Shown here one piece after another: positions 3,564-40,193 of a stretch of DNA of 64,000 nt. The stretch comes from an uncultured Gemmatimonadales bacterium (GTDB lineage: Bacteria; Gemmatimonadota; Gemmatimonadetes; Gemmatimonadales; JACORV01). The notes beneath the pieces are model-generated. The model was not told where the DNA came from, did not search any database, and worked only from the letters and a program-made list of their open reading frames with translations. Both the position numbers and the translations under genes were made by a program. The stretch lies in the NCBI GenBank assembly GCA_963835535.1, contig CAWIFL010000002.1, positions 649,011 through 713,010 on the forward strand. Reading direction: 5' to 3'. Each line of letters begins with the position of its first letter. The first letter of the stretch is position 1.

Positions 3564-4136
3564 TCACCCTTCCAAACGGAAGTGGGCGGACTCGGGACGC
3601 GCCAGCCATTCGGCGAGGGTCTGGGCGCTCCGGTCCTTGTCGGAGACGATCGGGTTCTTCTCGGGCCACTCGATGCCGAGGGCCGGGTCGTCCCAGCGAA
3701 TGCCGGACTCGCCCGGCTGGTTCCAGATGCTCGTGCAGAGATACTCGACATCGGCCACGTCGGAGAGGACGCAGAAGCCGCGCGCGAAGGAAGCCGGCGC
3801 CCATACCATGCGCGGGCGGGTGTCGTCGAGCGTGGTGGCGAAGTGCCTGCCCAGCGTCGGAGAGCCCTTCCGGAGATCCACCGCCACGACGCAGGCCGCG
3901 CCGCGCGCGACGCGCATCAGCTTCCCCTGCGGCGGGTCGAACTGGAAGTGCAGCCCGCGGATCGTGCCGCGGCGGGAACGGGAGAGGTTCACCTGGACGA
4001 ACGCGTCCGGGAGCCCGGCGGCGCGATAGACGTCGCTGCGGAAGACCTCGGCGAAGAAGCCGCGGTGGTCGTCGAACGTCTCTGGCGTCACGACCAGCAC
4101 GCCGGCGATGGGAGTCTGCTCGACGGTGATCCTCAT
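3564..4136 (-). CDS. rfbC: dTDP-4-dehydrorhamnose 3,5-epimerase
   Basis: 190-aa ORF with DHRGFFAEVFR and RGLHFQ..PQGKLMRV cupin motifs typical of RmlC. Confidence 0.9.
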   Translation of the reverse strand: MRITVEQTPIAGVLVVTPETFDDHRGFFAEVFRSDVYRAAGLPDAFVQVNLSRSRRGTIRGLHFQFDPPQGKLMRVARGAACVVAVDLRKGSPTLGRHFATTLDDTRPRMVWAPASFARGFCVLSDVADVEYLCTSIWNQPGESGIRWDDPALGIEWPEKNPIVSDKDRSAQTLAEWLARPESAHFRLEG

Positions 4137-4201
4137 GGGCCGGTTATGTTAGCGTCCCGGAGCGGTGGCGCAAACCCCCTGCCTCTTCGGTACTTACCTG
4201 C

Positions 4202-4256
4202 CTCTTGACGGGGCCGGTGCCGCGCCCCAAGTTTGCTTTACCTTGCAGAGTACTTT
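4202..4256 (+). promoter_or_regulatory. Candidate promoter/5' element of exporter gene 1 (block shared with 21116-21170)
   Basis: CTCTTGACGG (4202-4211) contains a -35-like TTGACG that ends exactly 32 nt before TTG 4243. It is followed by TGCAGAGTACTTT (4244-4256). The same two boxes, with the same 32-nt spacing, precede the paralogue at 21157. Confidence 0.4.
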
Positions 4257-4278
4257 GTACAACACGGCAAGCCACCCC

Positions 4279-6926
4279 ATGCGGGTGCTCCAGAGCGCCT
4301 GGCGCTTCACCCGGCGCCCGATGATCACTCTGGCCGCGATGGAGCTTGCCTCGACGCTCCTGGGCGCTGCGGCTGGGCCCCTGACCCCTAACCCCTATCC
4401 CCTAACCCCTGTCTTTCTCGCCGCCCAGCAGCCCGCCGGAGTGTCGGACCAACAGCTCCAGCAATACCTCCAGCAGCCGGGCATCGCCGACCAGCTGCGC
4501 CAGCGCATCCAGCAGAGCGGCCTCTCGGCCGACGAGATCCGCTCACGCCTCCGGGCCGCGGGTTACCCCGACAGCGCCATGAACGCCTACCTCGCCCCCG
4601 GTGCGGCGGGGGTGCAGGCGCCCGCGCCGACGCTCGAGACGCTCCGCGCCGCCACGGCGCTGGGGCTGGGGACGTTCGGGCCCTCGCCCGACACGCTGAA
4701 CGCGCTCCGCCGGGTCGTGGCGCTCTCGCAGGGGGACTCGATCCTCCTCGACTCCCTGGGCTTCGAGATCGGCCGCGACTCGATCCCCGGCCGGATGGGG
4801 AGCGACGGCGTGATGCGCCTCGACACGGCCGCGGCGCTCCGGATCTCGGCGTGGCTCAAGCGGCCCAAGGTCTTCGGCCTCGACGTCTTCAGGCGCACGA
4901 CGACGCAGTTCAGTCCGGTCGCCTCCGGGCCGGTGGACGCCGGCTACCGCCTCGGGCCGGGGGACGACCTGATCCTGATCCTCACCGGAGACGCGGACGT
5001 CGTCGAGGAGCTGCCCGTCACGCGCGAGGGGTTCGTGGTGATCCCGCAGGTAGGGCGCGTGCCGGTCGCGAACCTCACCCTGGGCGAGCTGCGGACGCTG
5101 CTCGCGACGCGGCTGGCGCGCGTGTACTCCGGCGTGAGGACGGGGACGATCCGCTACGACGTGACCGTCTCGCGGGTGCGGATGAACCAGGTGTTCGTGG
5201 ACGGCGAGGTGGTGCGGCCCGGCTCCTACCCGGTGAGCGCGCTCGGCACCGTGATGAACGCGCTCTACCTGGCGGGGGGCCCGACCGAGGCGGCCGACTT
5301 CCGCGACGTGCGCGTCATGAGGGGCGGCGCCGTGATCCAGCAGCTCGACCTCTACGACTACCTGGTCCGCGGGAACACGCGCGGCGACATCCGGCTCGAG
5401 CAGGGCGACGTGGTCTTCGTGCCGCCGGTCCAGCGGCGCGTGCAGGTCACGGGCGCCGTGCTGCGGCCGGGCTTCTACGACCTGGCCGACACGGAGGACC
5501 TGGGCGCCCTGATCCACTACGCCGGCGGGCTGCTGCCCAATGCGGATCAGGGACGGGCGCACATCGAGCGCATCCTCCCGGAGGCCCAGCGGCAGGCGGG
5601 CGGGCGCGATCGCGTGGCGATGGACGTGAACGATCTCGCCGGGGTGCTCCGGAGGGGGGGGCGGGGGGCGGCACGACGCCTCACTTCCGGCTGGAGCCCG
5701 GCGACCGCGTCACGATCTTCCCCGTCACCGAGGCCGTCCGGGGCGAGGTCACGCTGCGGGGGAGCGTCTGGAAGCCCGGCCCCTACGCCGTGGAGCCGGG
5801 GATGACGCTCTCGCGCCTCCTCGCCGAGGCGGGCGGCCTCAAGCCCGACGCGTATCTCGATCGAGCGCACGTCGTGCGCCTGATGCCGGATTCGACGCGG
5901 CGGCTGATCACCGCGGATCTGCGCTCGCTCCTCGGGCCCGGAGGGGCGATCCTGCCGAATCCGCCGGCGGCCGACGACCCGCAGCTCGCGGAGAACGACG
6001 AGGTGACGGTCTTCGCCACGCCGGAGTTCCGGCCGCCGCGCGAGATCCGGGTCTTCGGCGCCGTGCAGCACCCCGGCACCTATTCCTTCCGGGACTCGAT
6101 GACGGTGCGGGACGCCGTCATTCTCGCGGGCGGGCTCGGCGACGACGCGTATCTGCTCGAGGCGGAGATCTCGCGCCTGCCGCAAAGCCCGACGGACACC
6201 TCCGCGCTCGCCCAGATCATCCACGTCCCGCTCGACTCGAGCTACGTGATCGATCCGACGTCATACGTGCGGCGCGTCACCGCGCCGCAGGGGTCGAATC
6301 CGGTCCTGCAGCCGTCCGACTACGTCTTCGTCCGGCGGGTGCCGGGGCTGGAGCCGCAGCGGACGGTGGTCGTCACGGGCCAGGTGCGATTCCCCGGCCA
6401 CTACGCGCTGACGAGCCGGGACGATCGGCTGGCGGACGTCCTGCGCCGCGCGGGGGGCGTGACGACGAACGCGTACGTGCACGGCGCGCAGTTCTTCCGC
6501 TCGTTGGGCCATGCCGGCCGGATCGGCATCGACTTCGAGGGGGTGCTGAAGGACCAGCGCAACCGGGACAACCTGCCGCTCTTCGGCGGCGACTCGATCT
6601 ACGTGCCGGAGTACCAGCCGATCGTGAGCGTCGAAGGGGCGGTGAACAGCCCGGTCGCGGTGGCGTACGAGCAGGGGCGCGGGACGGGCTTCTACATCGA
6701 GCGGGCGGGCGGGTTCACGCGCCACGCGGACAAGGGGCGGACGTACGTGATCCAGCCCAACGGCTCGGTGTTCACGCGGAGCGCCACGCCCGAGCCGGGG
6801 GCCAGGGTCGTGGTGCCGGAGACGCCGCCGGGCGAGCGCACCAACTGGATACAGATCCTGTCCAGCGTAGGCCAGCTCCTGGTGAGCACGGTGACGCTGG
6901 CGATCCTGGCCAAGCAGGTGCTGTAG
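4279..6926 (+). CDS. Outer-membrane polysaccharide export protein (OPX/Wza-family, Poly_export + multiple SLBB repeats), paralogue 1; interrupted by one frameshift as assembled
   Basis: Two overlapping ORFs (4165-5805 and 4851-6926) together align end to end with the 21157-23832 paralogue. The frame switches inside the G8/G6 tract at 5654-5668. Repeated SLBB-like motifs are present (GAVxxPGxY, D...LxxAGG). C-terminal hydrophobic helix NWIQILSSVGQLLVSTVTLAILA. Alternative start at TTG 4243. Confidence 0.8.
4385..4410 (+). repeat. 7-bp tandem repeat (CCCCTAA/CCCCTAT) x3.7 inside the exporter-1 coding region
   Basis: Direct reading gives cccctaa cccctat cccctaa cccct, which encodes PLTPNPYPLTP just after the predicted signal/anchor segment. 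Confidence 0.85.
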
Positions 6927-6934
6927 CGGCCGTC

Positions 6935-8563
6935 CTAGCGGAGAGCGTACCTCACGCTCAGGATGACGTTCAGGTTGAAGGCGTCGTGCTGGAAGTATCG
7001 GTTGAACTCGTAGACAGCACCCACGTGGGCCAACACGTCGTAGCGGCCGAGGAAGGCGAGGCGCTCGACGGCCAGCTCGTGCTGGACGTCGAAGGCGTGC
7101 GGGATGGCCTGACTCGGCTGCGCGTTGCCTCCCTGTTGAGCCTGCAGGATCCGGGTCCACGAGAAGGTCCAGCGGCCGGTCGGGCGAGTAGGAGTCCACG
7201 GCCACGACCGACGCCCGCGCCGCCCGGTCCGCGGACGGACCCGAGCACTTGGCCCAGCTCAGTGTGGCCCTGTGTCGGCACGTCTCACGTGCGTGTAGAA
7301 CGGTCGACGGTGGCGCGACCCTGCGCCAGCACCGAGGGCTGCGTGTTCTGCAGCTTCCGCCCGCACGGCAAGCAGCCGGTTCCCGGCCCGCCGCATCACC
7401 TTGCGGAAGCCGATCGTGTAGCCGCCGTCGTGATCGGGTTCCTCGATGATATCGCGGAGATTCATGTTGTAGTCTTCGCGGCCATACTCGCCGTAGACCT
7501 CGAACCCGCTGTGCGGCAGCACCCAGCGGAAGTAGGCCGAAGCCAGCTGGTAGTCGATTTCCCTTGAGGCTGGCGTTGAGTGCCCCCTGATACCGCAGCA
7601 CCTTCAGGAGGTCGGCATGGAGGAGGCCGCCGGCCGGCCAGGGCTGGTGGGAGAAGCGCGTGACTCCAAGCTCCAGACCCGGGAGCCAGCGGGAGGTGAG
7701 GTTCAAGTTGATCCCGGTAGCGTACCTGACGCCGGCAGAGGCTGTCTCCGGCGAGAAGGCGGACTGGCTCGAGCCGTCCCCAGAGCATCCGGACGTGGAC
7801 GCGAAGAAGCCAGAGGTCCAGCGGATGAGCTGTTCCCGACGAAGGCTTGCGGGAAGCCCGCCGCGTTGTTGCCGAGGACGATCGGGAACTCGGTGGCGGG
7901 GCCCCAGTACTGATTCGCGGTGGTCACGCCTGCCGCGAGGGGACCCCAGTCGAGCCGGGCAGTGGACTGCCCGGGATCCACCCGCGCATAGGCGCCGCTT
8001 CCGAACCGCTGCGGCAGGTCAATCTGGTCGGGCAGCACGCCATCCGCGTAGGCGAGCGTTCCCGTCTCGCCGTTGGGCATCAGGGGGAAGCCGGCGTTCT
8101 GCGCGACGAACGCCATGGGGGCGACGGTCAGCGACAGCACACCCCACCGCAACGCCACGCCCGCCTGGCCGGCGAGCGTGAGGCCCCGCCCCGCCCAGAT
8201 CGGGCCGTCGTTGTAGCCATACGGGAACGTCGAGTTGTACCGCACACTCGCGGTCGGGGCCACCCAATCCACGGAGATGCCCTTCGCGGCCCGCGGCGTC
8301 AGGTCGTAGCGATCAGCCCAGGGATGGAGCGTGTCACGGGGCATGAGCCGGTCCAGCTCGGCCGGTGAGAACGCCCGGACGCCCCACGGATACGGCGCGA
8401 CCTCGCCCAGGGTCTGGAGATAGCGGAGGTAATTCTCCAGCTCGCCGCCGGCGAAGATCTCGGAGCGCCCGCCCACGCTCGGTGCGCCTTGGGCGGCGGC
8501 GGAGCGCGTGGCAGCTGCGATCGCCAGGCTGAGGAGAATCGCGGCGGGAACTGGACGAATCAC
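6935..8563 (-). pseudogene. Wzi-family (capsule assembly) outer-membrane beta-barrel, paralogue 1; at least 6 frame changes as assembled
   Basis: The N-terminal ORF 7703-8563 has a signal peptide (MIRPVPAAILLSLAIAAATRSAAAQG) and the QYWGPATEFPIVLGNNAAGFP motif. I followed homology to the 9696-11332 paralogue by hand through successive frames, with shifts near 7845, 7770, 7560, 7280, 7215 and 7165. It runs to the C-terminus ...VYEFNRYFQHDAFNLNVILSVRYALR, with the stop at 6935-6937. Confidence 0.65.
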
Positions 8564-8614
8564 GGCGTGAGCTTACTTGACCCCCCAGATGCGCGTCAAC
8601 ATCTTGACTCGCGC

Positions 8615-9676
8615 ATGGACCCCGACAAGCTCACCCTGCCGGCGCTGGTGGCCGGCATCCTCTCCCGCTGGCGCACCGTGGTCAGGGTGACGGTCGCGAT
8701 CGCCGTGCTCGCCCTGGTCCTCTCGTTCGTCCTGCCGCCCGGCTACGAGAGCCAGGCGACGTTCGTCACGAGCGACACCCAGATCCAGCTCCCCAACGGC
8801 CTCTCCGACCTGGCGAGCGGGCCCGGAGTGTCGGGCATCGTCTCGCAGCTGGGCCTGGGCGGAAGCAAGGACCCTTCGACCTCCCCGGCGTTCTACGAGC
8901 AGCTCCTGGGCAGCCGCGAATTGCTGACGCGGCTCGTGCTGTCGCCGTTCCCGGACCCGCGCAAGACGACGGCGGACAGCTCGGATCTCCTCTCCATCCT
9001 GCGGATCAGGAACGAGGATCGCGAGCGCGCGATCGAGATCGGGATCAAGCGCGCCAAGCGGGCGATGAAGGTCGGCGTGGATCCGCGGACGAGCTTCGTC
9101 TCCGTCACCGTCAGCACCCCGTGGGCGCCGCTCAGCGCCGAGGTGGCGAACCGGATCGTGGACCTGGTGAGCGCGTTCAACGGCGCGCAACGGCAGTCCC
9201 GGGCCCGGGCGCGGCGGATCTTCCTCGCGGGCCGCGTCGACAGCGCGCAGGCCGAGGTGAGCGCGGCCGAACGGGGGCTGAGCGATTTCTACGAGCGGAA
9301 CCGGCTGTGGCGCAGCTCGCCCGCGCTCATCGTCCGGGAGGCGAGCCTCCGGCGGCAGGTGGAGATGGCCGGCGAGCTGTACCTCTCGATCCGGCAGCAG
9401 TTCGAGGGCGCCCGCATCGACGAGGTCAACACCACGCCGGTGATCACCGTCGTGGACGCCGCCGTGCCGTCGCACCAGCCGCTGTGGCCCCGCCGTGTCG
9501 CCATCGTCGTCACGGCCGCTTTCGCGGGGCTCTGGCTCGGGCTGCTCTGGGTGGCGCTGCGCGTGCTCGCGGGCCACTGGGCGGCGAGCCACCCGGCGGA
9601 CGCCTCGTCCCTCCGCGATGCGATGGCCCGCACGTGGCGCGAAGCCGGCGAGACGCTGCGCCGGCGGCACGCGTAG
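8615..9676 (+). CDS. Polysaccharide co-polymerase / chain-length determinant (Wzz-like, no kinase domain)
   Basis: ATG at 8615 (MDPDKLTLPALVAGILSRW). N-terminal TM segment, long coiled-coil-like periplasmic region and a C-terminal TM segment (RRVAIVVTAAFAGLWLGLLWVAL). No Walker-A or Tyr-rich tail. Confidence 0.75.
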   Translation: MDPDKLTLPALVAGILSRWRTVVRVTVAIAVLALVLSFVLPPGYESQATFVTSDTQIQLPNGLSDLASGPGVSGIVSQLGLGGSKDPSTSPAFYEQLLGSRELLTRLVLSPFPDPRKTTADSSDLLSILRIRNEDRERAIEIGIKRAKRAMKVGVDPRTSFVSVTVSTPWAPLSAEVANRIVDLVSAFNGAQRQSRARARRIFLAGRVDSAQAEVSAAERGLSDFYERNRLWRSSPALIVREASLRRQVEMAGELYLSIRQQFEGARIDEVNTTPVITVVDAAVPSHQPLWPRRVAIVVTAAFAGLWLGLLWVALRVLAGHWAASHPADASSLRDAMARTWREAGETLRRRHA

Positions 9677-19533: not shown

Positions 19534-21090
19534 CTACGCCGCGCCGCGGCGGCGGACCACGGCCGGGATCGTGAGGAGGAGGATCTTGAGGTCCAGCCAG
19601 AGGGACCAATCGCGCAGGTACTCGGTGTCCAGGGCCACGACCTCCTCGAAGTCCACGATGTCGCTGCGGCCGCTCACCTGCCAGAGGCCGGTGATCCCGG
19701 GCTTCATGCCGAGGCGACCGAAGTGGTGGATCTCGTAGTAGTCGAGGTCGCTCTCGAAGAAGGGCCGCGGGCCGACGAGGGACATCTCTCCCTTGAGGAC
19801 GTTCCAGAGCTGCGGCAGCTCGTCGAGGCTCCAGCGCCGCAGCCACGCGCCGACGCGCGTCACCCTCGGGTCCTCGATGATCTTGAAGAGCCGCGGGTCG
19901 CCGGAATGGTTGAGATGGGCGAGCTTCCCCTTCAGGCCATCGGCGCCGTCCTGCATCGTCCTGAGCTTCCACATCCTGAACGGCCGCCCGCCGATCCCCG
20001 CGCGCCTCTGGGTGAAGAACACCGGGCCCCTGGAGCCGAGCTTGATGGCCACGGCGAGCACGGCGAAGACCGGAGAGAGAATCAACAGGCCGAGGGCGCC
20101 GGCCAGGAAGTCCATGGCACGCTTCACCAGGAACTGTTGGGCCTTGAGCGTCTGGCCGACCAGCTCGACCAGCGGCAGGCCGCGCTTCCAGACGACGACC
20201 GGGCTCACGCCGGGGACTTCGAAGACCGGCGGCACGGCGAAGATGTGGCACCCCGACGTCACGGCGTGGTCCACCACCTCGCGCAGTGTCGCCCGGTCCA
20301 CGGCGCCGCACAGCACCACCGTCTCGACCCGACGCTCGTGGATGATGCCGGGGAGCATCGCCACGTGGCCGAGGGATTCGGGATGCGCGGGCGCCGCCAC
20401 GTCCACGAAGCCCAGGACCGCGTGCTCGGAGCGGTGGGCGAAGGCCCGCTGGTTGCCGACGCTGCGGCAGGCGGCCGCGGGCCCGACCAGGACGGTGCGC
20501 GAAGACGCCGGCTGCCGGCCGATGATGCGGGCGTCCACGGCCTCGAGCGTGAGGCGGAAGACCGCAACCACGGCCCAGAGGGTCAGGGTGGTGACCGCGT
20601 ACTGCGCAGCCACGAGCGCGAGGCCATGGCCCCAGAATGGCGCCCAGAGCGGCAGGGCCGAAGCGAGCGCGCACCCGAGGAGGAGGCGGGTCGGGTCTCG
20701 CCTGTGGTCGCCGGCGCCGTAGTTGCCCGTGACCACGAGACCGGCCAGGAGCGCCGCGGCAAATTGCCACCCCCCGAACGCCGCGTCAGGGTAGAGCGAG
20801 CGGACGGGGGCGGCGAGAGCCGGCCCCAGCGCGGCACGCTCGCCGACCAGACGGTACAGCGCCCGAACCGCCCAGAACGCCGCGAGATCGGAGACGGCGA
20901 GGACGATCACCCGCGCCACCTCGCGCACCAGGTGCCGGCGCAGGATGCGGGGCGCCCGGCGCTGCAGCCCCATCTTGAGGTGGCCGGCGCCGTCTTCGCG
21001 TTCGGTTACGAGGGTCAACTCGGCCAGGTCCGCCTCACGGAGGGACGCCAGTAGGGTTTCGGCGCGTTCAAAGCTAACTTCCGCTGCCAC
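19534..21090 (-). CDS. Polyprenyl-phosphate hexose-1-phosphate transferase (WbaP/CpsE/EpsB-type initiating enzyme)
   Basis: The C-terminal catalytic domain reads KRAMDFLAGALGLLILSPVF...GSRGPVFFTQRRAGIGGRPFRMWKLRTM...DELPQLWNVLKGEMSLVGPRP. An N-terminal TM bundle plus a central Rossmann-like region are present. The true start may be internal (MGLQRR...). Confidence 0.85.
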   Translation of the reverse strand: MAAEVSFERAETLLASLREADLAELTLVTEREDGAGHLKMGLQRRAPRILRRHLVREVARVIVLAVSDLAAFWAVRALYRLVGERAALGPALAAPVRSLYPDAAFGGWQFAAALLAGLVVTGNYGAGDHRRDPTRLLLGCALASALPLWAPFWGHGLALVAAQYAVTTLTLWAVVAVFRLTLEAVDARIIGRQPASSRTVLVGPAAACRSVGNQRAFAHRSEHAVLGFVDVAAPAHPESLGHVAMLPGIIHERRVETVVLCGAVDRATLREVVDHAVTSGCHIFAVPPVFEVPGVSPVVVWKRGLPLVELVGQTLKAQQFLVKRAMDFLAGALGLLILSPVFAVLAVAIKLGSRGPVFFTQRRAGIGGRPFRMWKLRTMQDGADGLKGKLAHLNHSGDPRLFKIIEDPRVTRVGAWLRRWSLDELPQLWNVLKGEMSLVGPRPFFESDLDYYEIHHFGRLGMKPGITGLWQVSGRSDIVDFEEVVALDTEYLRDWSLWLDLKILLLTIPAVVRRRGAA

Positions 21091-21115
21091 GAGCGGCTAC
21101 TGACATTGCGCGCCT

Positions 21116-21170
21116 CTCTTGACGGATGGGGTGACGTGAAGCACATTCACTTTGCCATGCAAAGTACTTT
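21116..21170 (+). promoter_or_regulatory. Candidate promoter/5' element of exporter gene 2 (block shared with 4202-4256)
   Basis: CTCTTGACGG (21116-21125). Its TTGACG ends 32 nt before ATG 21157. TGCAAAGTACTTT follows at 21158-21170. It lies in a 66-bp divergent intergenic region. Confidence 0.4.
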
Positions 21171-23832
21171 TTCGCGCCCGATCGTGTTCCTGGTGGCCCT
21201 GGAGCTGGGGTTGACAGCTTCTCGGGGGCGGCTGGGTGGTCGCTACACCCTACACCCTACACCCTATCACCCTCGCCTTTGGCCGCCCAGCAGATCCCTA
21301 CTAGGCCCGCCAACGTCTCCGACCAGCAGCTGCAGCAGTACACCCAGCAGCCGGGGATGGGGGCCCAGATCCAGCAGGCGATCCAGCAGAGCGGCCTGAC
21401 GCCGGACCAGATCAGGGCGCGCCTGCGCGCGGCGGGATACCCCGAGAACCTGATTGACCAGTACATGCAGGCCCCGGCGGCCGGGCAGGCGGTGCCGAAC
21501 CCCACAGCGCAAATGCTGAGAGCGGTGTCGGCTTTGGGCATCGGCACCTTTGGAGCGCTTCCCGATACGCTTGCCGCCCGCCGCGACTCGATCTTCCTGA
21601 CGCGCGACGATTCCCTGCTCCTCGACTCCCTCGGCTTCACGATCGGCGTGGACTCGATCCCGACCAGGCGGGATACGCTCGGCTTCCTGCGCATAGACTC
21701 GCTGGCCACGTTCCGGTTGGCGGAGCGGGTGCACCGCCTGCGAGTCTTCGGCCTCGACGTCTTCCGGCGCACGACGACGCAGTTCAATCCCGCGGCCACC
21801 GGGCCTGTGGACCCCGACTACCGGCTCGGGCCGGGTGACCAGCTCGTGCTGATCCTCACCGGGGATGTGGAGACGGGTGTCGAGCTACCCGTCACACGGG
21901 AGGGCTTCATCGTCATCCCGCAGGTGGGGCAGCTCTACGTGGCCAACCTCACGATGGACCAGCTCCGGGACCTGCTCTACTCGCGGCTGGGACGGGTGTA
22001 CTCGGGGGTCAAGCGCGGGGCAGGCGCGACCACGCACTTCCAGGTCGCCGTGTCGCAGGTCAGGGTGAATCAGATCTTCGTGACCGGCGAGGTGGCGCGG
22101 CCCGGCGCATTCTCGGTGAGCGCTCTGGGCACGGTGATGAACGCGCTTTACGCCGCGGGCGGGCCGACCGAGCACGCCGACTTCCGTGGGGTGAAGGTGA
22201 TGCGGGCCGGGAAGGCGGTCGCGACGCTCGACCTTTACGACTATCTGCTGTCGGGGAACACTCGCAACGACGTCCGGCTCGAGCAGGGCGACGTGGTCTT
22301 CGTGCCACCCGTGAGCCGTCGCGTGGAGATCCGGGGCCAGGTGATGCGGCCGGCGCTGTACGATCTGGCCCAGGGGCAAGACCTCCGCGAATTGATCCAG
22401 ATGGCCGGCGGACTTCTGCCGCAGGCGTACACGGGGCGTGCGCAGATCGAGCGAATTCTCCCGCCCGACCAGCGGCCGCCGGGGGGCCGGGACCGCACCG
22501 TGGTGGACGTGGATCTCGCGGCTGCGCTGGGTCCCGGTGCCCCGTCCGTCCAGCTGGAGCCGGACGACCGGATCACGATCTTCGGCGTGAGCGTTCCGGT
22601 CAGGAACCGCGTCGTCGTCAAGGGCGACGTGTGGCGGCCGGGGGCGTACCAGGTCGATTCGGGGATGAAGCTGACCCAGCTCATCGCGGAGGCCGGAGGG
22701 CTGAAGCCCGACGCGTATCTGGACCGCGCGCACATCGTGCGATTGAACCCGGATTCGACTCGGGTCCTGATCCCGGTCAGCCTCGTGGGCATCCCGCCCC
22801 AAGGCGCGCCGGACTCCGGGCCCGCCGACACCCTACACCCTACACCCTACACCCATCTTGCCCCTACTGGGCATATCGCGTTCGATCCAGATCTCCAAGA
22901 GTTCGACGAAGTTACAGTCTATTCACGCACGGCCTTCCGCCCGACGCGGCAGATCGTGGTGTACGGCAACGTCCAGCATCCCGGCTTGTTCGCGTTCACC
23001 GACTCCCTGACCTTGCGGGACGCGGTGATGATGGCCGGGGGCTTGAGGGACGACGCGTACCTGTTGGAGGCGGAGATCTCGCGGATCCCCGAGCATCGGA
23101 CGGAGGGGGAGCTGGCCCGCGTGATCCAGGTCCCGCTCGATTCCAGCTACGTGTTCGACCCGACCGGCTACCTCAGCCGGCCGGCCGGGTCGGCCGCTCG
23201 GTCGCCCCGGCTCGAGCCGTACGACAACATCTTCATCAGGCGGGTCCCGGGCTGGGACCTCCAGCGGAACGTCTACATCACGGGCGAAGTGAAGTTCCCC
23301 GGCCGGTACACGCTCACGCGTCGCGACGAGAAGTTGCTGGATGTCCTCGACAGGGCCGGCGGGCTCACGCCGGACGCGTACATCGGCGGGGCGCAGTTCT
23401 ATCGAGCGCAGGGGAATGCGGGCCGCGTCGGCATTGACCTGAACAGGATCCTGAAGGACTCGACGTACAGGGACAACATGATCCTGTTCGCCGGCGACTC
23501 GCTGTACGTGCCGCAGTACCAGCCGGTGGTCTCGGTGGAAGGCGGCGTCAACAGCCCGGTGACGGTCGCCTATGTGCCCGGGCAGGGTACGTCGTACTAC
23601 ATTGACCGGGCGGGCGGGTTCTCGCGGCGCGCGGACAAAGGGCGGACCTACGTGGTGCAGCCCAACGGCTCGGTCGAGCGCGCGCAGCGCCACGCCGCAG
23701 CCGGGGGCGCGCGTCGTGGTGCCCGAGGTGCCGCCGGGTGAGGAGAGGACCAACTGGGCCGGGATTCTGAGCGCCGTCGCGACCATCCTCACCAGCGCGC
23801 TGACGATCGTGCTGGTGGTCCAGCGCCTGTGA
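21157..23832 (+). CDS. Outer-membrane polysaccharide export protein (OPX/Wza-family, multi-SLBB), paralogue 2; two frameshifts as assembled
   Basis: The main ORF 21279-23741 is collinear with paralogue 1. The N-terminus (MQSTFSRPIVFLVALELGLTAS) lies in another frame, with the switch at the G5 run 21224-21228. The C-terminal helix (NWAGILSAVATILTSALTIVLVV) lies in ORF 23572-23832, with the switch in the GC-dinucleotide run 23678-23685. Confidence 0.8.
21243..21270 (+). repeat. 7-bp tandem repeat (CTACACC) x3 perfect plus 1 imperfect unit in the 5' coding region of exporter 2
   Basis: Direct reading gives ctacacc ctacacc ctacacc ctatcac. It shares an identical 22-nt stretch (acaccctacaccctacacccta) with 22828-22849. 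Confidence 0.85.
22828..22855 (+). repeat. 7-bp tandem repeat (ACACCCT) x3 perfect plus 1 imperfect unit in the interior of exporter 2
   Basis: Direct reading gives acaccct acaccct acaccct acaccca, which encodes DTLHPTPYTH. The aligned position in paralogue 1 has no equivalent insert. Confidence 0.85.
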
Positions 23833-39202: not shown

Positions 39203-40193
39203 ATGTCCGTGGAACGCGTCTTGATAGCGGGAGGAGGAGGGTTCATCGGCGGGCACCTCGCCGCTGAATTGCGCCGCCGGGGATGCGCCGTCCGAGCCGT
39301 GGACATCAAGCCAATCGAAGAGTGGTATCAGGTCTTCGACGATGTGGAGAACGTCGTCGCCGACCTCAAGCTCCGGGAGGCATGCGAGCGTGCCTGTCGC
39401 GGCGTCGACACCGTGTATCAGCTCGCGGCCGACATGGGAGGCATGGGCTTCATCGAGAACAACAAGGCGCTGTGCATGCTCTCAGTGCTCATCAACACCC
39501 ACATGCTCCAGGCGGCCCGCGCGGCCGGGGTCAGCCGGTACTTCTACTCCTCTTCGGCGTGCGTGTACAACGCAGACAAGCAGACGCTCGACCAACGTCG
39601 TGCCTCTCAAGGAGGAAGACGCCTATCCCGCGATGCCCGAGGACGGCTACGGGTGGGAGAAGCTCTTCTCGGAGCGGATGTGCCGGCATTTCCGCGAGGA
39701 CTTCGGCTTCCCACGCGCGTGGCCCGGTTCCACAACGTCTACGGCCCGCTTGGCACGTGGGACGGCGGACGGGAGAAGGCTCCCGCGGCGATTTGCCGGA
39801 AGGTCATTCACGCGCTGGAGAACCGGCGAGAACGGCATCGAGATCTGGGGCAGCGGGGAGCAGACGCGTTCGTTCATGTACATCGACGACTGCATCAAGG
39901 GCATCCTGCAAATTACGGCCAGCGACATCATCGAGCCCATCAACCTCGGATCCAACGAGCTCGTCACGATCAACCAGCTCGTGGACATCGTCGAGGACAT
40001 CGCCGGCGTGAAACTCGAGCGCCGCTACAACCTCGCGGCCCCGAAGGGCGTCAACGGACGCAACTCCGACAACACGCGCATCAAGAAGCTCCTGGGATGG
40101 GAGCCGTCCATTCCCCTGCGCACGGGCATGGAAACCACTTATCGCTGGATTCACGACGAATACGTGAAAGCCAACGGCGCCAAGCGTTCGTGA
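39203..40193 (+). pseudogene. GDP-mannose 3,5-epimerase homologue; three frameshifts as assembled
   Basis: Segments in alternating frames together reproduce the GME pattern: RVLIAGGGGFIGGHL, LAADMGGMGFI, SSSACVY | NVVPLKEEDAYPAMPEDGYGWEKL | RVARFHNVYGPLGTWDGGREKAPAAICRK | IEIWGSGEQTRSFMYIDDC...GRNSDN. Switches lie near 39590, 39712 and 39820. Confidence 0.75.

Follow-up and report, generated by a model that had tools for sequence, protein, structure and literature searches.

A conserved promoter-like element and palindrome at the 5' end of polysaccharide-exporter genes in Gemmatimonadales: a predicted cis-regulatory module

The two polysaccharide-exporter genes in a 64-kb stretch of Gemmatimonadales DNA (the whole stretch that was analysed, called the window hereafter) appear to be headed by a conserved cis-regulatory module of about 100 bp, which is predicted to stand before OPX/Wza-type genes in Gemmatimonadales. 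In the proposed mechanism, the TTGACG of a first conserved box (box 1) would be the -35 element of a sigma-70-type promoter, and CAnnTT, 17 nt downstream, its -10-like element. Transcription would start at the start codon or about 2-3 nt ahead of it, so that the mRNA would be near-leaderless. An AT-rich palindrome with the consensus A-CTTTG-N5-CAAAG-T followed by ACTTT, which begins 2 nt past the -10-like hexamer, would cover the predicted transcription start and the first codons, and its position and symmetry suggest an operator for a dimeric DNA-binding regulator. Such a regulator would keep RNA polymerase from binding or from escaping the promoter and thereby switch the exporter gene of each polysaccharide locus, and the MQST N-terminus encoded at the second conserved box (box 2) would be a by-product of a start codon lying within a DNA element. 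We give this mechanism in full, comprising a functional -35 in box 1, an mRNA that is near-leaderless and a protein-binding operator in the palindrome, about an even chance (probability roughly 0.5). The combined promoter, near-leaderless and operator reading appears better supported than the reading of box 2 as a conserved MQST peptide, and that box 2 is an element at the nucleotide level is concluded with high confidence.

The window has a G+C content of 67%, and its content throughout is polysaccharide biosynthesis and export, with glycosyltransferases, two Wzy, flippases, Wzz, Wzi, NeuB and sugar-modifying enzymes; the nearest related loci are found in Gemmatimonadales MAGs and peat metagenomes. 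The exporter paralogues are large OPX/Wza-family proteins of about 890 aa, both with Poly_export (PF02563) and SLBB (PF10531/PF22461) domains, and are 61% identical to each other once frame-corrected. Intact counterparts exist for both, namely an 892-aa ORF for the frame-broken copy 1 (L034) and an 889-aa ORF with 96% identity to copy 2, beginning at the same ATG (L018). The divergent neighbour is rmlC beside copy 1 and a Bac_transf priming transferase beside copy 2. In copy 1, the presumed TTG start at 4243 is accompanied by an in-frame ATG at 4279, right before the signal peptide, as an alternative start. A Pfam scan of about 45 ORFs of the window turned up no gene for a transcription factor, a sigma factor or a NusG-like protein. 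The features of the window are as follows.

4134..4174, minus strand: start of the divergent rmlC (TTTGCG 4174-4169, 17 nt, TAACAT 4151-4146, 9 nt, ATG 4136)
4189..4194, plus strand: distal -10-like GGTACT of copy 1, from the alignment (GATACT in the orthologues L006 and L039)
4202-4211, plus strand: box 1 of copy 1, CTCTTGACGG, with TTGACG at 4205-4210
4228..4233, plus strand: -10-like CAAGTT of copy 1, 17 nt past TTGACG and 9 nt ahead of TTG 4243
4236..4250, no strand: degenerate palindrome core of copy 1, CTTTACCTTGCAGAG, with 2 mismatches to CTTTG-N5-CAAAG and in the same form in L034
4243..6926, plus strand: OPX/Wza-family exporter gene, copy 1, with a frame break in a G8/G6 run near 5652-5668 in this assembly
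4244-4256, plus strand: box 2 of copy 1, TGCAGAGTACTTT, downstream of TTG 4243
8577..8617, plus strand: third composite of the window, TTGACC-17-CATCTT-9 nt-ATG 8615, upstream of the Wzz/GNVR chain-length gene and without a palindrome
21102..21107, plus strand: distal -10-like GACATT of copy 2, 11 nt ahead of TTGACG, from the alignment only
21116-21125, plus strand: box 1 of copy 2, CTCTTGACGG, with the -35-like TTGACG at 21119-21124
21142..21147, plus strand: -10-like CACATT of copy 2, 17 nt past TTGACG and 9 nt ahead of ATG 21157
21149..21165, no strand: perfect inverted repeat ACTTTGC-CAT-GCAAAGT of copy 2, with the core CTTTG-N5-CAAAG at 21150-21164, centred on the start codon and followed by ACTTT
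21157..23832, plus strand: OPX/Wza-family exporter gene, copy 2, with Poly_export and 5 SLBB domains, and frame breaks near 21218-21224 and at about 23679 in this assembly
21158-21170, plus strand: box 2 of copy 2, TGCAAAGTACTTT, comprising the right arm of the palindrome and a third ACTTT unit, in codons 1-5 (M Q S T F)

An earlier note on this DNA had described two boxes shared by the exporter paralogues at identical spacing, and the sequence bears this out at these positions in both copies, with a distance of exactly 32 nt from TTGACG to the start codon (TTG 4243-4245 in copy 1, ATG 21157-21159 in copy 2). CTCTTGACGG and TGCARAGTACTTT occur only at the two exporter genes of the window, with a start-to-start distance of 42 nt, and neither box is found elsewhere in the 64 kb at 0 mismatches. 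Homologous loci were then fetched by protein similarity, so that retrieval was blind to the boxes; 8 came from genomes, 9 from exact-protein look-ups and 80 from metagenomes. Class L is made up of 13 non-redundant 5' regions, which are both window copies and 11 homologous loci from other Gemmatimonadales assemblies (L001, L002, L006, L018, L019, L029, L033, L034, L042, L048 and L054). TTGAC lies exactly 31 nt ahead of the box-2 core in all 13, which equals the 42-nt box-to-box offset of the window. The form TTGAC(G/T/C/A) is present at this fixed offset throughout class L and also upstream of almost all exporter homologues, and the boxes and their spacing are kept among relatives at 57-96% protein identity. 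The constant offset in the 13 class L sequences argues that the similarity of the boxes is under selection and is not left over from a recent duplication. The claim that conservation is absent between the boxes was at most partly right, since 17 of 32 positions are identical between copies 1 and 2 and the CA..TT and CTTT columns are invariant across the orthologue alignment. Searched at one mismatch, AAGTACTT gives 15 matches against 2.8 expected, mostly inside coding sequence, an excess that may come from codon structure that dinucleotide shuffles fail to keep.

Box 1 looks like the -35-like element of a promoter kept before polysaccharide-exporter genes across Gemmatimonadales. In both copies, TTGACG matches TTGACA at 5 of 6 positions and is followed, after a spacer of exactly 17 nt, by CAnnTT, which has A2 and T6, lacks T1 and agrees with TATAAT at 3 of 6 positions. 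Because of this poor -10-like hexamer, a strict E. coli-style scan called 0 promoters. The pattern TTGAC[CG]-17-CAnnTT has 3 matches in the window against 0.2 expected, at both exporters and the Wzz/GNVR gene. In its relaxed form, TTGACN-17-[CGT]AnnYT, it has 82 matches against 4.7 expected in the window and loci together (about 470 kb), 80 of them on the exporter-coding strand. Exporter homologues as distant as 45% identity nearly all have the composite upstream, and it also precedes the Wzz orthologue in L005 and glycosyltransferase genes in L067 and L091. This breadth supports the earlier suggestion that TTGACG acts as a -35 with a 17-nt spacer and a weak -10 (CAAGTT or CACATT). In clades at 45-52% identity the leader is about 30-47 nt long and the spacer contains a conserved GTTAG, and it is the persistence of the composite whatever its distance to the start codon that makes it promoter-like. 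A sigma-54 promoter (TGGCAC-N5-TTGCW, with a GG/GC spacing of 10 nt) was rejected on reading the sequence; copy 1 has TTGCA and no GG element at -24, and copy 2 has GCAC...TTTGC with a spacing that is 2 nt too long. A second promoter-like pair, TTGnnn-17-GAyAyT, can be read from the alignment 10-14 nt upstream of box 1 in most loci. If this distal pair were active, both boxes would lie inside the leader, and a reading of the repeat as an RNA element or attenuator would gain weight.

The distance from the -10-like hexamer to the start codon makes a near-leaderless exporter mRNA plausible. The gap is 9 nt at both exporter copies, at wzz (8615 in the window, and the orthologous site L005:4578) and at rmlC; in L040, L068, L078 and L090 it measures 8 nt, and the ORF that diverges from wzz (TAAGCT, GTG 8563) has a gap of 6 nt. 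No GGAGG-like sequence is present in the 9-nt gaps of the exporters (CACTTTGCC / TGCTTTACC). Both sequence hallmarks of leaderless genes are thus found here, a -10-like element within 6-10 nt of the start codon and the absence of a Shine-Dalgarno sequence. In Mycobacterium tuberculosis, the -10 box of leaderless genes lies 6-8 nt from the start (PMC6028130), and in Deinococcus deserti an mRNA with a 5'UTR of 1-3 nt still counts as leaderless (PMC4007540); set beside these, the 9-nt gap makes a 5'UTR of about 0-3 nt plausible. As in the leaderless mRNAs of Actinobacteria and Deinococcus (PMC6028130, PMC4007540, PMC4633059), there is no room for a Shine-Dalgarno sequence, and several genes of the locus that come first in their operons show the pattern. 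The present case differs in that the gap exceeds the typical one by 1-3 nt, which makes a 5'UTR of 1-3 nt likelier than a true 0-nt leader. It differs also in that copy 1 and the L006 group use TTG or GTG with an alternative downstream ATG, and in that other clades of the exporter family have this type of promoter ahead of a leader of about 40 nt. TTG in copy 1 is an unfavourable codon for leaderless initiation; copy 2 has ATG. The gene at 39203 has a clear GGAGG, which indicates that the organism also uses leadered mRNAs. The earlier proposal of a near-leaderless mRNA, or of a conserved operator or 5' element, therefore agrees with the 9-nt gap, which recurs at wzz 8615 and rmlC 4136, and with the palindrome in box 2; its leaderless part we infer from the geometry.

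Box 2 consists of the right arm of an inverted repeat and an extra ACTTT. The core of this repeat, CTTTG-N5-CAAAG, has 22 matches in about 470 kb against 0.1 expected, of which 21 are at exporter 5' ends. The remaining one belongs to L036, in which a glycosyltransferase gene is preceded by a second, truncated copy of the entire 5' module, with promoter, core and a stub of the signal peptide. At no gene other than these exporter 5' modules was the core found in the window and loci. Its 5-nt centre is invariant and its arms are conserved as sequence in 36 non-redundant sequences, a set that was itself picked by core match. The start codon, by comparison, occupies different positions relative to the core.

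Start codon at +7 relative to the core: M-Q-S-T, in class L
Start codon at +4: M-I-Q-S-Q, in L035
Start codon at -6: M-x-L-C-A-x-K, in class B (L008, L009, L014, L022-24, L028, L030, L031, L036, L055 and L058)
Start codon at -10: M-K-T-T-L-F-R-K, in L040
Core untranslated, no peptide: L027, L032/L044 and L043
Core untranslated, in-frame TAG inside the core: L037
Core untranslated, GCAGAGTACTTTG kept without any start codon: L039

L057 has an upstream ATG and the core as in class B. This sliding of the start codon around a fixed DNA element appears to be the most unusual aspect of the module. What all architectures have in common is an element just downstream of promoter-like hexamers, with no fixed relation to the start codon, and because the former position is shared and the latter is not, a role at the DNA level in transcription is favoured. 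Between the palindrome and the nearest -10-like hexamer lie 2-3 nt in loci of classes L and C, about 11 nt in those of class B and 18 nt in L040; the upstream regions of class B could not be simply aligned to those of class L, since the distance between the promoter-like element and the core differs. If transcription begins about 7 nt past CAnnTT, the left arm would be untranscribed in classes L and C.

These registers weigh heavily on the idea, also raised in the earlier note, that box 2 simply encodes a functional N-terminal peptide (MQST...) and that box 1 is an ordinary promoter remnant shared by paralogue descent. In class L the box-2 start is in an open frame with the exporter ORF in each of the 9 tested loci, even where 30, 54 or about 100 nt are inserted, which suggests that translation really begins there, and distant homologues begin with M-x-S-T-H using other codons (TCG ACC), so that a weak peptide-level signal exists at the N-terminus as well. 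Against the peptide, however, the same DNA is read in other frames or stands in non-coding leaders, the annotated N-termini otherwise vary greatly among 120 homologues, and Q-S-T-F of copy 2 is written in four rare codons, CAA-AGT-ACT-TTT (P about 7.5e-6 given the peptide, from the codon usage of the window). The varying frame and position of the core, together with the four rare codons, lead us to reject a mere MQST N-terminus, and the peptide explanation is scarcely credible. A recombination footprint, in which the module would be a junction for the exchange or duplication of polysaccharide-locus cassettes and the palindrome itself would have no regulatory role, is in our estimate very improbable. 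The truncated module before the glycosyltransferase gene of L036 would fit it, as would the presence of the module at paralogous loci within one genome, in the window and in the MAG SPRUCE 616 (L002 and L006). Conservation is nevertheless concentrated in short motifs at fixed spacing with diverged flanks, which is the pattern of a functional site and not of recent exchange, and the palindrome is kept among the relatives that share the boxes, down to 57% protein identity (range 57-96%).

The operator reading of the palindrome has also to be set against two explanations in which the transcript matters. If the distal TTGnnn-17-GAyAyT is the real promoter, the boxes would be transcribed within a leader of about 45-50 nt, and the repeat would act as an RNA hairpin, with the start codon in its loop in class L, or as a weak attenuator with a U-run. 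The distal pair is present in most loci with 17-nt spacing and A2/T6 in its hexamer, copy 2 can form a 7-bp hairpin (-6.5 kcal/mol, z = -2.9) that is followed by ACTTTTT and was flagged as terminator-like by the scan, and there are G.U-compatible variants (CTTTG/CAGAG) and one compensatory pair in L039 (CTCTG/CAGAG). In copy 1, however, the hairpin is not formed, and the 88- and 92-nt contexts are no stabler than shuffles (z -0.5 and -0.7). Covariation was assessed in a gapless alignment of 36 non-redundant sequences with 28 distinct rows, whose choice by core match limits the test; the 7-bp helix is 88% paired there, 474 of 500 shuffles of the 3' partners pair equally well, and the score between the arms is below the shuffle mean. 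The stem is moreover AU-rich and weak for a genome of 67% G+C, the T-run is specific to class L, and the start codon has no fixed place relative to the hairpin, being found in its loop, 3 nt ahead of it or 27-45 nt past it. Rfam gave no match at the gathering threshold in the whole window and nothing relevant at E<=1 in 20950-21350, on which ground a known RNA family was rejected, and the absence of covariation, the weak folding and the missing hairpin in copy 1 speak against an RNA hairpin under selection. We regard the distal-promoter explanation as unlikely. A role in early elongation, as a loading or pause site for a specialised NusG-type factor, in the way that ops/JUMPStart serves RfaH, or through a -10-like TACTTT (at about +12 to +17) that causes sigma-dependent promoter-proximal pausing, has a slender chance. 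In its favour, the conserved element falls where transcription of the leading gene of a polysaccharide locus begins, a niche that ops/JUMPStart also occupies (PMC6391919); TACTTT fits TAnnnT, and L004 has four tandem (T/C)ACTTT units. Yet no ops sequence is present near either start, no NusG-like gene was seen among the scanned ORFs of the window, and TACTTT after the core is specific to class L. The exposed non-template strand read by RfaH is shorter than 17 nt, so that the 17-nt palindrome exceeds it. The ops element of enterobacterial polysaccharide operons, besides, sits in longer untranslated leaders (PMC6391919).

Compared with known systems, the palindrome is most likely, as a prediction, an operator for a dimeric regulator. 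Sigma-70 promoters with a palindromic operator over the transcription start include those with LexA SOS boxes, and lac O1 is centred at +11. The module resembles them in TTGACG, the 17-nt spacer and a -10-like hexamer with A2 and T6, in the placement of a short, AT-rich palindrome, its centre fixed at 5 nt, on the predicted start or immediately past it, and in half-sites conserved as sequence without covariation. It differs in having CAnnTT in place of TAnnnT as its -10, and in that the predicted operator overlaps the start codon and is translated in different frames by lineage; to our knowledge, CTTTG-N5-CAAAG matches no nameable operator. The enterobacterial JUMPStart/ops-RfaH system is alike in that a short conserved element lies just past the promoter of many polysaccharide clusters of one lineage, at paralogous loci, whereas the Gemmatimonadales element is unrelated in sequence, palindromic and situated at the start codon instead of in a long leader. 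JUMPStart/ops itself, with the 12-nt ops GGCGGTAGnnTG in the leader, was rejected because ops is absent near the starts and no NusG paralogue was found nearby; no GGCGGTAG occurs in the exporter 5' regions, and its four matches in the window are inside distant coding sequence. The NusG-like UpxY factors of Bacteroides capsule loci offer a possible further parallel. The invertible capsule promoters of Bacteroides are similar in that several polysaccharide loci per genome share promoter-region sequences. No inverted repeats flank the promoter here, and this, with the 80:2 strand bias, led us to reject an invertible promoter; as 80 of the 82 promoter-like matches face the exporter gene, no locus was seen flipped.

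Several observations count against the proposed mechanism. The -10-like hexamer has no T1, and the distal pair is also conserved, which would give a leader of about 45-50 nt if it were the real promoter. The distance between hexamer and palindrome is not constant across classes. Copy 1 combines a TTG start with a degenerate palindrome, and no regulator gene is present among the scanned ORFs of the window. Furthermore, the palindrome has no copies at other genes in the 470 kb that could define a regulon, and the M-x-S-T-H of distant homologues, with its other codons, suggests that N-terminal conservation is partly at the peptide level.

The finding would represent a lineage-specific cis-regulatory module. 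The literature searched contained no description of it, nor of any promoter, operator or transcription-start data from Gemmatimonadota. As a tentative and rather doubtful extension, the module may be a polysaccharide-locus leader of Gemmatimonadales, in which a dedicated promoter and a palindromic site mark the exporter gene of paralogous loci and one regulator switches or chooses among these loci. If true, its function would parallel that of JUMPStart/RfaH or of the UpxY/UpxZ circuits of Bacteroides, with another element as its basis. The element appears to be constrained so strongly that the start codon has repeatedly shifted around it, with at least four translated registers or none. The module therefore offers a natural example of a cis-element that constrains the first codons of a gene, and it bears on the annotation of start codons, which are mis-called in several exporter entries of the databases (P0005 and P0095, for example). 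Gemmatimonadota are abundant in soil and peat, and experimental genetics is almost absent in this phylum. The promoter form TTGACN-17-CAnnTT, the likely near-leaderless start and the 17-bp palindrome, which could serve as bait for the regulator, would together give a testable handle on how these bacteria control the export of extracellular polysaccharide, which matters for soil aggregation, desiccation tolerance and biofilms.

A shortened second copy of the exporter 5' module, which comprises a promoter-like composite (TTGACN-17-CAnnTT) and the palindrome core at the head of the gene, was found in the homologous locus L036 at 880-1080. In this copy, the promoter-like region comes with ATG-CCA-CTTTGCGCCACAAAG and with a stub that resembles a signal peptide and ends in AQQPTPSQ. 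The copy lies 1.4 kb upstream of the true exporter gene, with a GT4 glycosyltransferase ORF immediately downstream. This duplicate suggests that the module duplicates or recombines as one unit.

The promoter geometry extends to the distant exporter clades (L059-L097 and L010-L017), in which the 17-nt spacer is conserved as well, in the form TTGACG-N8-(A/C)GTTAG-N3/4-CAnnTT (for example, L066:681 and L010:1433), and the leaders have CCCTTGGGARAAAGC in common. A conserved spacer is uncommon in a plain sigma-70 promoter, and in these clades it may signal the use of a specialised sigma factor or an extra contact by a protein. The distant homologue L015 carries a perfect 26-bp palindrome, CCATGATAGCTAATTAGCTATCATGG, at about 1395-1425, with the exporter promoter on one side and, on the other, a divergent gene of the XRE family (HTH_3/HTH_31); this palindrome is probably the XRE-family regulator's own operator. 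In L010, L013, L016, L017 and L096, the gene directly upstream of the exporter is small and encodes a 23S_rRNA_IVP (PF05635) domain; in L096 it is also preceded by the promoter-like composite.

Within the window, the chain-length gene wzz (ATG 8615, + strand) is separated by 51 nt from an unannotated ORF on the opposite strand (GTG 8563), and each has a -35/-10-like pair spanning the promoter of the other:
Within 8561-8617, + strand: pair of wzz, TTGACC-17-CATCTT-9-ATG.
Within 8561-8617, - strand: pair of the ORF at GTG 8563, TTGACG-18-TAAGCT-6-GTG.
By sequence, the two predicted promoters are divergent and overlap, and in each the spacing to the start codon is that of a short leader.

Around the boxes of the two exporter genes (copy 1, 4243..6926; copy 2, 21157..23832; both + strand), CCTGCCTCTT forms a perfect 10-nt direct repeat at 4178-4187 and 4197-4206, 19 nt apart, whose second unit extends into the TTGACG-bearing box 1 of copy 1; the repeat is not present at copy 2. 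When up to one mismatch is allowed, AAGTACTT occurs at 15 sites in the window versus 2.8 expected from dinucleotide shuffles. All are internal to coding sequences except the two sites at box 2, the right palindrome arm at the start codon, and the excess may reflect codon structure rather than a motif.

Both exporter genes are interrupted by frame shifts in this assembly:
5650-5670: break in copy 1, at a G8/G6 run, 5 nt extra relative to L034.
21215-21230: first break in copy 2, +2 nt near 21218-21224 relative to L018.
23675-23685: second break in copy 2, +1 nt near 23679 relative to L018.
In the close relatives L018, L019 and L034, the exporter ORFs are unbroken (886-892 aa). The coding sequences also hold heptanucleotide arrays, directly past the signal peptide and once internally, which encode P/T/Y-rich linkers:
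4378-4410: CCCCTAA, 4.7 copies.
21243-21273: CTACACC, 4.3 copies.
22828-22854: ACACCCT, 3.9 copies.
Between copy 2 and L018, which are 96% identical, the array differs in both sequence and length. Seven is not divisible by three, so the exporter reading frame would shift if the number of repeat units changed. The breaks are either assembly errors or the result of recent inactivation or phase variation.

Database start codons are evidently misplaced in several exporter homologues (e.g., P0005 at L014:932 and P0095 at L016:747). In one case the annotated start is too far upstream and falls in the promoter-like region; in another it is too far downstream, beyond the signal peptide. The conserved 5' module could serve to correct the start calls of these exporter genes.
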